Assembly: GCA_964016885.1 (NCBI GenBank)
Contig: OZ024745.1
Coordinates: 52,514,001 to 52,578,000 of the forward strand
DNA from: Eledone cirrhosa
Lineage: Eukaryota
Length of the DNA stretch: 64,000 bases
Direction of reading: 5' to 3'
The translations under genes and the position numbers were made by a program. Position 1 is the stretch's first letter; each line of letters starts with the position of its first letter. The notes under the pieces are model-generated. The model was not told where the DNA came from and searched no databases. It saw only the letters and a list, made by a program, of their open reading frames with translations. Shown here in pieces: positions 6,284 to 51,660 of this stretch.

Positions 6284-6563
6284 TAGAAAGTGAGGTTTTT
6301 TTTACAAAATGAAAAATAAACCGAGGTGTCCTACACGAGTGAAAGTATAAAGAAAAAGAGATGAAATCGAAAATGCAACTGAAGTCTTATTTTTTTTTTA
6401 AATATATATATTTAATTGGTTCCTTTACCGGTTTCGCAGCTCTTCTGCTTTTCAAAAGGTGAGTTGAGATGGAGGGTCTGTGGTTTTTATAGGAACCAAA
6501 TAAATATATATGTTTTTAAAAAAAATAAGACTTCAGTTGCATTTTCGATTTCATCTCTTTTTC
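6284..6563 (-). mobile_element. Family B fold-back insert with minimal HHR (6422-6459, minus strand)
   Basis: Tailed arm 6284-6490, short inverted arm 6491-6563. HHR reads cctt-TTGAAAA-gcag/ctgc-GAAA-ccgg-TA-aagg. Other copies at 31531 and 62762. Confidence 0.8.
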
Positions 6564-6764
6564 TCTCTCTCTCTCTCTCTCTCTCTCTCTCTCTCTCTAT
6601 ATATATATATATATATATATATATATATATATATATATATATATATATATATATATATATATATATATATATATATATATATATATATATGTATATATAT
6701 ATATGTATATATATATATATATATAATATATAAGAACAAAAGATGGTTAAAAGAGTTCCATGTA

Positions 6765-6831
6765 TTTTATTATGCGCATTTCAAAAACAAATATTATCAT
6801 GCAATAATATTTGTGTTTTCATCAGATAAAA
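6765..6831 (-). ncRNA. Minimal type I HHR in the inverted pLTR
   Basis: Reverse complement of the HHR at 12692-12758. Confidence 0.85.
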
Positions 6832-7788
6832 TAGGAAGACATATGAAGGTTAAAAAACACTTGTGGATAGTGCAGTTTTAAATCAACATATGAAAAGTAG
6901 TTTTAGATTGATGTGTGATATTGGGCGAACATTTTTTTTTAGCGGGGGGGGGGGGGTGAAAAAGAGGAGGAGATGAGAGTAAAAAGTGGAGAGGGAGGAG
7001 TATAATGAGGAATTATGAGATAGGAGGAGAGATGAGTGATAGAGAGAGAGAGATAGCTTTTATAACTGAGAAAAATATATTGTTTTACATAGAGAGGTTG
7101 AAAAACCGTTGGAAGATAATGTATAAATTAAAAGAATTTGAAAATTAACGAAGAGAAAAATAATGTAAAGTTAAGCTTTGTATATTGAAGGGTCTAATAA
7201 TATGTGCGATGAAAAGAAAATGTTGATATATATTAAGAATAATATTTAAGGGTTTAATAATATGTGCGATGGAAAGAAAATGTTAATATGTATTAAGAAT
7301 AATATTTAAGGGTTTAATAATATGTGCGATGGAAAGAAAATGTTGATATGTATTATTAAAAAGAACAACAAGTAATGTAAGTAAGGATATATTGTGAGTT
7401 GAGCATGAGTAAGTTAGATGAAAGGGAGAATAAAATAATGAATTGAAGATGAATAATCTAACGTCAAAAAATGTTTATGTTTACGAAGGATTTTTGCAAG
7501 GTAATATGAAGTAAGAATGTATTGTATTGCGTAATAATTGTTTCTATGATAGGCAACAGTGAGAAAAGGTACAGATTAAGAGTTAGACATTAAAAGAAAA
7601 AGAGAAGAAAGGGAAAATGAAGAAAGGGAAGTGATAAATAGGAGTGATATAGAATGAGTAACAAGTATTATATAATGTATAATAAATAACTTTGAAATAA
7701 GGTAGAAAGATGGGTATATTTTTAAAGAAGTATATATATATATATGTGCCTTTGAGAAAAAGATTCTAAATTGATAAAGTTTTGGATA

Positions 7789-8758
7789 TTAGCTATATAC
7801 TTTGTGGAATGTTTTGTGGAATGTATGCAAGCAGAGAGAAAACAAGTCAGTGCGTCTATTTATTATAGAATCTAAATTAGATATAATGGTAAATTTTTCA
7901 TTTAGACAGAGATTGCAAATCTTGTTTAGAGAACTGTTCAAGAATGGAGACGCAGAAGAAACCTTTTTCCAAAAGATGCCATACTTAATATTTTTGTCTT
8001 TCAAGGACCATATGAGTTCTGAGAGAGCCGTGTTGGTTCTTTTAAGTTTGTATTTAAAAGACGAATGATGGTTATAAAGACGAGCTTTAAAGGAGGTGGA
8101 AGTGGAGCCAAAATAGGTGAAGGAATTGGTGTCCGTTATAACTTTACATTCATAAATTAAGTTTTTATCAAGACAATTGCGATTAGAGAGATTATTAACG
8201 AGTGACCTAGTGTTATCTATAGAAGGAATTGGATTGGAGAAGTTATTTGCGATAGGAATAATAGTTTCTTGATTTAGAATGGGATTAAGAACATTTAGCG
8301 AAGTTGTATTTGACGTTGTATTTGGGTTTGCAGAAATTAGCCTAGGGTTTACAATGACGTCGGGAGTACTATTACTATTATTATGATATTCAGTGTTGGA
8401 AGGAAGAGATTTAGTATTTAGTATTTTATTGTTGTGTTTAGAGATAATGTTGGAAATGTTGGAGGATGTCGAATAGGAAAATTGTATAGTGTGTTTGTTA
8501 AATATTTTACTATAGATATGTGAGGGAGGGAAGCATTTATTTAAGGCACTAAAGAATAATTTAGGAATATTATTATTAATAGAGATGGAGAAAGGAGCAT
8601 TATACCAGATTATGTTTTTGTATCTAGGTCTTTTATTAAAGTTATTGGAATGATCATGATTAATTATTCTAAGATCTTCTAGAATTTGTTTCTTTACTAT
8701 ATTTGATTTTATCAGGATAGCCGGCTTTAGAAAGCGCGTTATTATAGTAATTGGCGTT
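7789..8758 (-). pseudogene. Inverted duplicate of the PLE linker/GIY-YIG coding region
   Basis: Reverse complement of 10820-11792. ORF 7789-8004 mirrors 11577-11792. Confidence 0.9.
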
Positions 8759-48689: not shown

Positions 48690-48880
48690 ATTAGATTTTA
48701 AATCTCATTTCATATTCTCTATCCACAAATTCTCTGTCTTATGACCGATGCAAACGTATATCAATATTGTCTGGAATCCAGAATCCTTTGGTAATAGACT
48801 ACCGTAGTTATATTTTGTGTTGTTCATTTTGTAATTGAATAGATCTTTTTTCCTTCGCTTTTCCTTCGGAAATACCTAAC
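48690..48880 (+). mobile_element. Diverged pLTR fragment related to 38288-38430
   Basis: atgaccgat..acgtatat.aatattgt.tgg.atccagaa...ttttgtgttgttcatttt. Confidence 0.6.
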
Positions 48881-48950
48881 ACATATATATATATATGTAT
48901 ATATAAATTTAGAATTTGTTTTATATATATATATATATATATATATATAT

Positions 48951-51406
48951 AGGAACGAGAAGGACCCCGACGGCTGAGCTCAAGCCGTTTCGACGGCTAA
49001 TTCCGGACTAAACGAAAATTTTTATCCTGATATATGAATAGCCGAGCTTTTCAGGGGGTAATTCCATATATGGTAAAAGTTATTGTCACAAGGATTGGCC
49101 AAAAGTTTGTTGTTGAGACATAATTCTATCATGGCAATTTGTGGAGGGAAGGGGTAGCTGAACTTGCCAGTAGAAGAAAGAGGGAGAGGGAGTGAAGGAA
49201 ACCCAATCGTGCGTTGATAGTGCCAACTACAGCAGAATCCTAAGGATAAGAGGTCAAGAGAAGTATACTAGGGAAGGGGAGGGGGAGGAAGTCGAAACAA
49301 TAAGTAAAACAATATGGGGTAAATATATAGAAAAATACCGAGAATGTTAAAAAAAAACAATTAAATGTAAAAAAAACAATTTCTGTTTACTATAACCCAA
49401 GGACAGCTATCAAGTCTATCACTGGTACTGCTAGACTAAAGAAAGGTTTACTAGGTGGGACGGAATTATAATGAGGCCCTTTTAAGAGGTATAAGTAATC
49501 AATCGAGTATATCTTACGGTGACGGGTCAACAAGTGGTGGTGGGGGGGCAAAATACTAAAGAAACTACCACGAAATAATAATTCAGTGTCCCGAGACCAA
49601 TACGAAATAAAGGTTTCTACCCAGGCACAAGGACAGCAACCAGCCAGTGCAAAAAAAAAAAAAAAACTAATACGAAATAATAATTCAGAATCCCGAAAAA
49701 GAATACTAATACTATCTCTAAGGGTGCCGCCACGATACAAACATTCTAGTGCAAACTACATAAATGCTCGTACGAAGTATATGAAAAATTATATACGGAA
49801 AATTAATTCAGAATCCCCCCCCCCCAAAAAAAAAAAATAAATACTGATATACGAGAAATTAAAGCAAAGATACCACTAAGAAATATACAAAGCACGGAAA
49901 GGGGGCAGCCATCGGATAAGAAGGCAAGTATCCGGGGTCTAACACATCTGCTATAAAAAGCGGAGTCGGCCAATTCTATCATAGAATAGGGGAAGGGGTG
50001 GGGGTACTGAGGCTACAAAGAACCGAGGGGCTGACTCGGGTGGGCGAGAAAGTGAAAAGGACGACGACAAAGAAAGAGGACTGAGGTGGAAGGACTAGGG
50101 ACGGATGGGGGAAGAAGGAAATATAGAGGAAGCGATAAAAAGATATAAAGGAAGATCATACGTCTACCGTTGCAAGCAGGGGTTACCCATTACAAAGTTG
50201 GCAAGTGGGGTGTTATAGCCCTAGTCTACGACCCCCCCCCCGGGTCATTATGGGGTTTGAGGGCGAGGTAAGTCCTACGCAATCTGTGTTTACATGCAGT
50301 TACCAGTTCATCTTTCTTGTTTAGGAGTTGTTCCGTCGAAAACAGCATTTGTAAAGTTTCCTCCGATCATAAATTGCACAGACCTCGTCCTCCCGTGTAA
50401 GAGTTGGCTCTGGACAGTAAGCTCCAAGTGAGGTCATAGGTAATATTGTTATCGTTGAGGTCCCATATGTTGCCGGAATGTGTAGTGGCGTGACGCCGGG
50501 CCGGGTTTCGGAAGGTATGTCTGTGTTGGTATAGCCGGGTCTTGAAGTCACATGCGGTTAATCCTATATAAGCTTTGTTGGAGGTGTCCGTCCTCACGAT
50601 GCACTGGTAGATCACATTACGATCTCTGCATCTGTTGTCGAGAGGGAAAATGGATCCATCGGGACAGTTGCACCTCCTGGTCGGTTCTCCACTGCTATTT
50701 AGGTTATTTTTTCCATAGGGGTTGAGTTTTTTGTTGTTAGAGGAGACGATGTTTTGTGCAAAGTTTGGTGTGGTGTTGTAAAAGAGTTTGATGGTATTTT
50801 TGTTAATTATGTTGTGGTAGCGGTGTTGTAGTGGGAAGTGCTTTTCAATGAGCCTAAAGAAGATTTTCCCGATAGGAGTTGTCACCTCGGCGTTGTGGGG
50901 AGGATTGAACCATGTTACATGGCGTGAGCGGCGGTGTCGCCTGCTGGTTCCGCTAATGGAAGCTGGACAGTAGGATATTTCTCCCGGGAACTACTCCGCT
51001 TGAGGGCCTGATCGTAATAAGGCGCATGTTCCTCTAATATCTGCTCATTAGCGGACAAACCAGATATGCGGAGGGAGATGTTTTTAACCAGGTTATTGGT
51101 GATGTTCCTAGGATGGTTTGACCGACGGTGGATGTAGTGCAGGTTGTCGTTGGGTTTCCTGTATGGGTAGTACAGATCATTATCCTTGTGACAATAACTT
51201 TTACCATATATGGAATTACCCCCTGTGAAGCTCGGCTATTCATATACCAGGATAAAAAATGTCATCTAGTGCAGAATAAGCCGTCGAAACGGATTGAGCT
51301 CAGCCGTCGGGGTCCTACTCGTTCCTATTACCCACTTTACTACCCTAAGTATTGAGTACTTTGGTGCGTTATGGTCCACCTGGTTCCTTACCACATTTCC
51401 TTCGTT
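48951..51406 (-). mobile_element. 5'-truncated Naiad-like PLE (family A): 2.2-kb tail-less arm plus 225-bp tailed inverted arm
   Basis: 51182-51326 is the inverse of 48951-49094. HHR-like motifs at 48964-49059 (-) and 51218-51313 (+). Confidence 0.92.
50214..51178 (-). pseudogene. PLE thumb/linker + GIY-YIG endonuclease
   Basis: YYPYRKPNDNLHYIH..SNHP, WFNPPHN, NVIYQCIV..AYIGLT, FKTRLYQH, CNL*SEE, LNKKDELVTACKH. Confidence 0.9.
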
Positions 51407-51478
51407 ATATATATATATATATATATATATATATATATATATATATATATATATATATATATATATATATATATATAT

Positions 51479-51660
51479 AGTAATAATAATAAATTTGAAG
51501 ACTAAAATTCAAAGAGGGCTCGCTCAGGATAAATATATATCAAATATGTAAGAACCGTAGAGCAAATATTTATTAAAATAACAGATTAAAGTTTAAGCAA
51601 AGAGTCGGTGGGTGAAAGCAGCGATTCTTTGCTTAAACTTTAACCTGTTATTTTAATAAA
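51479..51660 (-). mobile_element. Family C mini fold-back
   Basis: Tailed arm 51479-51610, short arm 51611-51660. Confidence 0.82.

Follow-up and report, generated by a model that had tools for sequence, protein, structure and literature searches.

Inserts in the window

The window analysed here is a 64-kb stretch of the 3.0-Gb Eledone cirrhosa assembly (positions 52514001-52578000 of contig OZ024745.1), an animal genome with abundant (TA)n and (CA)n. Self-comparison of the microsatellite-masked window revealed many local inverted repeats lying between TA runs. The inserts treated here, labelled as families A to H, are insertions of Penelope-like elements (PLEs) with two copies of the element 3′ end placed head to head. 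We call the arm that ends at the tail end T and the arm that ends at the internal tail-less site L, and give positions within elements relative to the L site. A sequence-only reading of this window had described such an architecture at 15 coordinates, and all 15 are starts of head-to-head PLE 3′-end inserts between (TA)n runs. In each of them one arm extends to a tail end that is constant for the family, while the other stops 35-160 nt upstream of it at an internal TA-like site, likewise fixed. It had also taken the arms to be outward-facing 3′ ends, and the open reading frames (ORFs) of families B, D, E and G set the sense in that way. The eight families that it called unrelated are indeed distinct at the DNA level, but B, D and G appear to be related Hydra-type PLEs by their protein motifs. 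The tail measures 63 nt in A, 95 in B, 80 in D, 44 in E and 90 in G, and approximately 129 nt in C, 160 in F and 35 in H. Directly past most start sites, L or T, stand 2-6 nt of TA-like sequence matching (TA)n.

The largest family B insert consists of a tail-less arm of ~2.0 kb on the minus strand (6727-8758), with its 3′ end at (TA)n, and a tailed plus-strand arm that is a partial tandem (8757-12886). The latter begins with an upstream pseudo-long terminal repeat (pLTR) and tail (8757-9355) and continues into a full unit whose tail ends at 12886; in such partial tandems the tail runs straight on into the next unit. On the plus strand, the elements of this arm follow in the order stop site (9098), L site (9260), T site (9355) and ATG (9437), so that the 95-nt tail (9260-9355) is part of the 5′ leader. 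The stop site, shared by both arm types of the family and recurring at 12629 in the 3′ copy, is the +1 of an initiator (Inr)-like TCA+1TAT and a putative capped start. Downstream lies a broken ORF (9410-11792, plus strand) with reverse transcriptase (RT) and C-terminal GIY-YIG motifs of Hydra type (DKT, no CCHH, CxxC and CxH) and no Pfam hit, followed by a type I hammerhead motif with a palindromic stem III (12690-12762, plus strand), whose predicted cut, ~38 nt upstream of the L site, is no truncation hotspot.

Two of the other inserts belong to family A: at 6285-6557 the tailed arm is on the minus strand (6285-6488) and the tail-less arm on the plus strand (6488-6557), and at 31533-31889 both arms end at a shared site ~30 nt downstream of a TATA box. 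A tail-less minus-strand arm and a tailed plus-strand arm make up the inserts of families C (16678-17062), F (23574-24010) and H (46505-46839), the short insert of family B (17155-17453), two inserts of G (24710-25680 and 44279-44631) and two of D (38003-38199 and 48953-51405); the last of these carries GIY-YIG remains in its tail-less arm. The reverse arrangement is found in a D insert with an internally deleted tail-less arm (17674-17853), in a family E insert with a 2.7-kb tailed arm containing RT and GIY-YIG remains and a 459-bp tail-less arm (19210-22385), in an E subfamily insert (44704-45286) and in a short G insert (51481-51659). In the middle of the G insert beginning at 24710 lies a nested palindromic segment (~25020-25120; region 25009-25290). 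That the tail-less arm can outreach the tailed arm in the 5′ direction, as had been noticed from the sequence, was confirmed at 48951 (2.2 kb against 224 bp), 44279 (-167 against -91) and 17150 (-126 against -89).

Identity of the elements

Reading by eye, we found RT motifs followed by a GIY-YIG-like domain in ORFs of families B, G, D and E; fetched copies of G and D contain near-complete ORFs, while the E and D remains of the window are on the minus strand. No ORF was seen for families A, C, F and H, and a Pfam search of 10 proteins gave a single weak match, RVT_1 in E. The hallmarks of endonuclease-containing (EN+) PLEs are present, namely pLTRs formed from partial tandems (nine cases), an inverted 5′-truncated copy and a tail. 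Compared with the motif list in the available text of PMC8557442, translations of B, D and G have DKT for DKG, lack CCHH in the endonuclease and have CxxC and CxH around the E and N residues. The CxCX5C linker is present in G and D (locus L340) and absent in the window B copy, and the RWK position reads RWR in G and RWI in B. Together with TA runs at both outer ends of 193/213 pairs of B, G and D, these matches suggest that the three families are Hydra-type PLEs carrying most marks of that clade. The E translation (19959-20624) has cysteine motifs of the Neptune type as the same source describes them (PMC8557442), and by this motif match family E is probably Neptune-like.

The hammerhead core, also read by eye, is canonical in B and E and degenerate in G and D. 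An Rfam scan of the window had no hammerhead among the best 150 of 200 rows, which held only sub-threshold microRNA-like matches on palindromes and microsatellites. A small hairpin (GCTC-loop-GAGC, with a loop ending in GGTT) stands 6-7 nt after the T site in both B (9362-9382) and G (locus L229, 4278-4293), and the leaders of the two families do not otherwise align; it is a candidate protein-binding or start-positioning element.

One tail-less and one tailed arm per insert

Exact core-pattern matches number 30,149 for G, 16,434 for D and 14,563 for B genome-wide. Our sample was drawn from regions around the listed matches in the first 46 Mb of one contig (C1), covering the first 62 of 104 clusters of G, 57/57 of B and 43/49 of D; 340 loci merged into 275 stretches totalling 1.33 Mb, with a bias toward copies with an intact core. 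Thirty loci (L001-L030) obtained with a whole-fold-back query were used in allele-frequency tables only and excluded from architecture counts, because such a query selects its own architecture. The pair classes below are counts from the fetched sample and from listed coordinates.

Within this sample, 3′ ends are sharply bimodal in every family, and genome-wide 11,574 cores of family G run into TA (L) and 11,831 into the tail (T). Independent choice between two ends would yield mixed pairs half of the time. Instead, our script assigned 237 of the 245 classifiable pairs, among 255 head-to-head pairs, to the L+T class (p ~1e-59 against 50%), and reading the exceptions by hand gave 242 L+T, three T+T and no L+L pairs, with nine unclassifiable and one misgrouped. 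Pairs within 1 kb among 189 listed matches give the same picture (13 L+T, 2 T+T, 0 L+L). TA stands at both outer ends of 206 of the 237 L+T pairs. A strict rule of this kind is what a single RNA would impose, since it offers each site once. Of 753 arm ends, 499 are paired, 229 are solo and 25 fall at locus edges.

Both arms come from the same source

The sequence-only reading had proposed two templates, and one test that it suggested was whether the arms of one insert carry different subfamily-diagnostic single-nucleotide polymorphisms. The outcome was negative. Over 172 pairs, the arms were discordant at 63 of 1,889 polymorphic sites (39/1,032 in B, 11/234 in G, 10/327 in D, 2/255 in E and 1/41 in A) and shared alleles at 96.7%, whereas random L-T pairs were discordant at 37% of sites in B, 34% in G, 38% in D, 25% in E and 44% in A. 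With tandem-repeat zones masked, discordance was 26/1,532, and at least two discordant sites were found in only 2/144 pairs. Shared rare alleles are enriched ~10-50-fold within inserts. The arms nevertheless differ by 1.6-4.1% private changes, and a weak nearest-neighbour test placed the own partner strictly nearest in 22/144 pairs, in the top quartile in 55 and elsewhere in 67.

Gene conversion was considered as the main cause of this concordance and rejected. Conversion between the arms would also wipe out mutations acquired after insertion, yet the density of unshared rare variants is 0.0097 per site where the arms overlap and 0.0130 in single-copy parts of the same inserts, so that conversion explains about a quarter at most and not a tenfold drop. 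Locus L194 has a run of shared variants that may be a local conversion tract. With conversion too weak to explain the agreement, both arms of an insert come from the same source lineage, and the idea of two independent templates is not supported.

The same data bear on an arrangement in which both strands are primed on two RNAs of one locus, one RNA per protomer of an asymmetric dimer held together, for example, by the palindromic hammerhead stem III during their synthesis. It corresponds to the two-template model of the sequence-only reading, narrowed to RNAs of one source. If pairing took place in cis, concordant alleles would be expected of it as well, but dimers between loci must be rare or absent, as at least two discordant sites occur in so few pairs. 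It would also need one extra rule for the presence of one L and one T arm without any L+L insert, and another for the use of the same segment copy in both RNAs.

Neither arm is a copy of the other

In the 237 L+T pairs, the L arm extends more than 20 nt further 5′ in 81, the T arm in 28, and the two end within 20 nt of each other in 128; 40 pairs have no arm overlap at all, as the T arm ends inside or at the tail. Because the two start sites are offset, the comparison of 81 with 28 overstates the difference, and we therefore used a symmetric length test that counts the tail. Among 52 pairs with an arm of more than 300 bp, the L arm was longer in 35 (medians 783 and 323 bp), a result carried by B (17/20) and D (5/6), with 10/18 in G and 3/8 in E. 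The earlier claim that arm lengths vary independently is not fully borne out, as they are partly correlated (Spearman 0.32-0.41 in B, G and D) because both arms often end at one shared site.

These figures bear on another possibility, in which only one strand primes and its cDNA folds back on itself to prime the second arm; the endonuclease would then resolve the product at the internal TA-like site, and template jumps or deletions at a later stage would account for the asymmetries. The self-priming idea was proposed by Arkhipova et al. 2013 (PMC3846280, in the text available). Self-priming predicts the identical alleles and the junction microhomology that we find, and 128/237 pairs are near-symmetric. 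A fold-back copy, however, must lie inside the first arm. With T made first this fails for the 81 pairs in which L reaches further and the 40 without overlap, and with L made first it fails for every tail; plain fold-back self-priming is excluded because neither arm lies within the other. Later deletion was examined as the cause of longer tail-less arms and is not supported: L-further pairs are equally common among young inserts (14 against 8) and old ones (17 against 16), and deletion would favour neither arm. Moreover, filler bases vary among symmetric inserts, and in some of these both arms carry an extra G. We thus regard the extended form of self-priming as improbable. Since neither arm is a possible copy of the other, the claim that both nicked strands are primed at two defined sites is supported, and priming from both strands is likely.

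A shared 5′ stop

Arms of both types pile up at one family-specific position, which is -162 in B, -70 to -66 in G, -60 to -55 in D and about -146 in A. The bases there (TCA+1TAT, TTA+1GTT and TTA+1GTC in B, G and D) resemble the Inr consensus, in sites chosen after the hotspots had been seen; the family A site lies ~30 nt past TATAAAA. Junction filler bases differ among copies, so the copies that share a stop are independent events, and a single master palindrome copied as a unit is ruled out. In 14 of 26 unambiguous filler cases an arm that ends at +1 is flanked by G, against 24/127 at other ends (p 7e-4), with 8/13 in B, 3/4 in G and 3/9 in D. For family B genome-wide, the non-template base before +1 is G in 2,329 copies, T in 1,758 and A in 659, next to 4,557 read-through copies; these counts omit breaks ending in C, the T figure is raised by an ATAT overlap where inserts are symmetric, and the partner arm may have supplied some of the G. 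About half of the family B arms that reach the start site end there, most often with an extra G. As an untemplated G is an accepted mark of a copied cap in L1 and SVA (PMC4859970, available text), the shared stop is likely to be the 5′ end of a capped linear transcript that would start in the pLTR.

Hammerhead cleavage was considered as another source of the stop and rejected, since the stops at -162, -70 and -57 do not match the predicted cuts at -38 (B), -24 (G) and -16 (D). The cuts coincide with no truncation hotspot (0 ends in B, 0 in G and 3 of 93 in D), and the hammerhead role suggested earlier is not seen. In G (window 51590-51640, -70 to -19), the shared stop falls on the 5′ boundary of a hammerhead-like fold whose core is non-canonical; the stop lies 60 nt upstream of the hammerhead in B and inside the stem II loop in D.

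Templates can also be longer than one unit, because six of the nine partial tandems extend past the +1 of the upstream unit. This brings in the possibility that a circle produced by the hammerhead, or a long multimer, serves as template twice, once for each nicked strand. One such molecule would explain the concordant alleles, and the six tandems need templates longer than one promoter-to-end transcript. On the other hand, about half of the B arms reaching the start site stop there, mostly with an extra G, which a circle cannot give; the predicted cut sites are not end hotspots, and the long class can be put down to linear tandem transcripts or to a terminal-repeat strand transfer. The circular or multimeric RNA of the sequence-only reading is therefore retained in one part, as templates of more than one unit exist, and dropped in the other, as a circle is incompatible with a one-base stop plus extra G. 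Tandem transcripts or strand transfer do occur, and a linear multimer is already within the explanation that we favour below; as a distinct alternative, we give this possibility little credence.

The fold-backs as a class are not an artefact

Library or assembly chimeras could also create fold-backs. Raw Illumina restriction site-associated DNA (RAD) reads from two other samples, together with contigs from a third, all from amplified libraries, were mapped to 8300-10300 at 85% likeness. Joints at which the strand switches, from 9098 to 9262, were found in 78 and 90 reads from 2-3 start places and in four contigs, and joints from 9098 to 9326 in 98 reads from one start place; TA loose ends are present at 9274 and 9357-9359. 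All strand-switch reads derive from other family copies, and none of the RAD reads bridges the window's own insert junctions, including 8757, which is what chimeras have in their favour. They do not explain why the arms differ by private changes, why ends and stops fall on element-specific bases, why independent samples show the same strand switches and the TA-joined ends at both sites, or why such structures have also been reported from other species (PMC8557442 and PMC3846280, in the parts available). The fold-backs are not an assembly artefact as a class, and we consider an origin as chimeras very improbable.

Coupling of the arms and a proposed mechanism

When one arm stops at +1, its partner crosses +1 in 0/30 cases in B, 1/36 in G and 3/88 in D. 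Over all pairs, neither arm crosses in 151, both in 37, L only in 22 and T only in 3. The arms are coupled at +1, and a single copy of the pLTR-tail segment therefore serves both. Ends of T arms are enriched at the L site (-5 to +3, a window chosen post hoc), with eight ends in 9 nt in G (p 3e-4) and three in B (p 0.04). At clean junctions without filler, microhomology of at least 2 nt is found in 31/59 cases, against 18% by chance.

We think it fairly probable that the insertions arise by twin priming on a single RNA, with a dimer cutting both strands and each 3′ end priming at its own fixed site. A predicted dimer of the PLE enzyme would cut both target strands, and the protein would hold one pLTR-tail segment of one RNA so that it spans the two active sites, each of which is used once. 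The upstream L site would prime one strand and the T site, 35-160 nt further downstream, would prime the other, and both polymerases would travel toward the RNA 5′ end. The trailing T polymerase would either stall near the L primer, leaving no overlap, or displace the first cDNA, producing overlap. Where the segment lies in the 5′ leader, both would run off the capped start and yield short symmetric fold-backs; where it lies in the downstream copy of a tandem transcript, long arms would result. Finally, the 3′ ends of the two cDNAs would be joined, through microhomology or with a few extra bases, and each cDNA would serve as template for the second strand of the other. The sequence-only reading had dismissed twin priming on one linear RNA because the arms overlap, an argument that does not hold in general, as L1 twin-priming insertions with inversion-point duplications are reported (PMC12350158, available text). 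Whether twin priming is moreover the normal route of PLE integration, in which a dimer spanning one RNA, a fixed site per strand, displacement and mutual second-strand templating would produce the tail, the inverted pLTR and the tiny symmetric palindromes made by run-off at the capped pLTR start in one reaction in at least two PLE clades, is in our judgement evenly balanced.

Several observations weigh against priming of both strands on one RNA. For symmetric inserts, 60-160 nt of cDNA would have to be displaced by the trailing polymerase before it reaches the cap, and PLE enzymes are not known to have such an activity. The bias toward longer L arms is absent in G (10/18) and E (3/8), the T arm outreaches the L arm in 28 pairs, D has no pile-up of T arms at the L site, and the window for that pile-up was picked after the data had been seen. 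Solo arms make up 229 of the 753 arm ends. Three true T+T pairs (L281, L275 and L198) need a multimer or two RNAs. The extra G lacks support in the unambiguous cases of D (3/9), and the capped start itself is putative. The own partner is strictly nearest in just 22/144 pairs by the weak test, and allele concordance fits one RNA molecule and two RNAs of the same locus alike. In the in vitro reactions of PAc (Poseidon of Anolis), the start site does not differ between strands in the available text (PMC11167929), which neither supports nor rules out pairing per molecule.

The asymmetric dimer of two RNAs from one locus is the main rival, as it avoids displacement: two run-offs at the cap need none, T arms outrunning L arms are expected, and the three T+T inserts are its best cases. 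The hammerhead with a palindromic stem III in family B also fits. It needs the extra rules for strict asymmetry given above, however, and leaves the stalls of T arms at the L site and the shorter T arms of B and D unpredicted; hammerhead cores are degenerate in G and D, and the D start site lies inside the ribozyme. We consider this arrangement unlikely, though clearly less so than the alternatives discussed before it, and return to twin priming on a single RNA as the preferred reading.

Other repeats in the window

Further solo arms or short fold-backs are found at 856-1678, 37595-37705, 41141-41274, 63007-63176 and 47702-48163. The family D insert at 37595 has no tail on either side in the window and was not scored as a pair by the script, and 47702-48163 is a repeat family with rearranged arms. 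Two more large inserts with inverted arms (38291-40810 and 54482-55965) are probably additional families of the same kind; the first contains a Hydra-type RT frame (38693-40095) with an RWK motif.

Other repeats have a different structure. Between TA runs at 17931-19146 lies a head-to-tail tandem of a 567-bp unit (two full units and parts) with a short inverted end (19114-19146), possibly a retrozyme-like or non-autonomous unit. A 613-bp direct duplication (5371-6226; 99.6% over 243 bp at its ends) ends at the TA run before 6284. The 2.7-kb palindrome at 34140-36838 (97%) has no TA-run borders, has one weak match in the 1.33-Mb sample and falls outside the PLE pattern. A 299-bp palindrome (62345-62643, 99%) adjoins an abundant repeat resembling a short interspersed nuclear element, copies of which lie at 25917, 27085, 29999, 47104, 58027 and 62153, with 185 matches in the sample.

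Comparison with known systems

The architecture is real and known. In the parts available to us, studies of EN+ PLEs describe insertion units with 5′ truncation, partial tandems that form pLTRs, an inverted 5′-truncated copy, a tail that is often one-sided and (TA)n targets, the tail being optional and 30-40 bp long, and they suggest endonuclease resolution or self-priming (PMC8557442 and PMC3846280). Inverted copies, one-sided tails, (TA)n targeting, two start sites and two-strand extension are thus already published. Compared with these units, the inserts described here have tails of 35-160 nt, one tail per insert as nearly a rule (242 against 3), arms from the same source and shared start-site stops. 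What appears to be new is the quantitative pairing rule and the revised mechanism. Neither the strict L+T pairing nor same-source arms nor run-off at the cap turned up in literature searches, though older papers on the structure of Drosophila Penelope, which were outside the searches, may hold part of it, and the available text of bioRxiv 2026.07.22.740005 mentions neither tails nor twin priming. The Hydra clade includes Hydra-1_Obim, and a (TA)n-targeting octopus Hydra family is listed in File S1 of PMC8557442. From what that paper's available text describes, families B, D and G are like this clade in their C-terminal GIY-YIG without CCHH, DKT, CxxC/CxH and (TA)n insertion, and unlike most of its members (<3 kb) in their units of 3.2-3.5 kb, in RWR or RWI for RWK and in a hammerhead core that is canonical only in B.

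The origin of inverted pLTRs and one-sided tails was named an open problem by Craig et al. 2021 (PMC8557442), and the sole in vitro PLE system leaves later steps unvalidated (PMC11167929), each in the portion available to us. With the pairing, the same-source arms, the coupled run-off at a putative capped start and, for some families, the shorter trailing arm, the choice of models is reduced to one RNA or a dimer from the same locus. If our preferred mechanism is true, PLEs perform a programmed twin priming without separate second-strand priming, which would identify one source of the short palindromes that number tens of thousands in (TA)n-rich animal genomes and would offer a way of mapping PLE promoters from genome sequence alone.

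The PAc study of Frangieh et al. 2024, in its available text (PMC11167929), provides the closest biochemical parallel, as both strands are cut and extended in vitro from two internal start sites that bound the tail, the enzyme is predicted to be a dimer and hammerhead cleavage is dispensable. Inverted copies are not explained there, nor are the products on the two strands of a single target connected with each other. For PAc the target is reported to have no homology to the start site, in contrast to the 2-6 nt of (TA)n match that follow most sites here. The PAc start sites are in the start of the ORF, and those of B and G are in the 5′ leader. Target-site duplications around a whole insert would be hidden by the (TA)n flanks. 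The likeness to L1 twin priming (Ostertag and Kazazian 2001), as described in the available parts of PMC4859970, PMC12350158 and bioRxiv 2024.12.14.628481, is that the second target strand primes internally and leaves head-to-head cDNAs with joints that show small indels, deletions and duplications. In L1, however, twin priming is occasional, uses variable internal sites and has a first primer on poly(A), while here it is the main outcome (499/753 arm ends paired), there is no poly(A), both start sites are fixed and internal, and overlaps reach kilobases. PLE insertion thus resembles twin priming yet differs from the L1 process.

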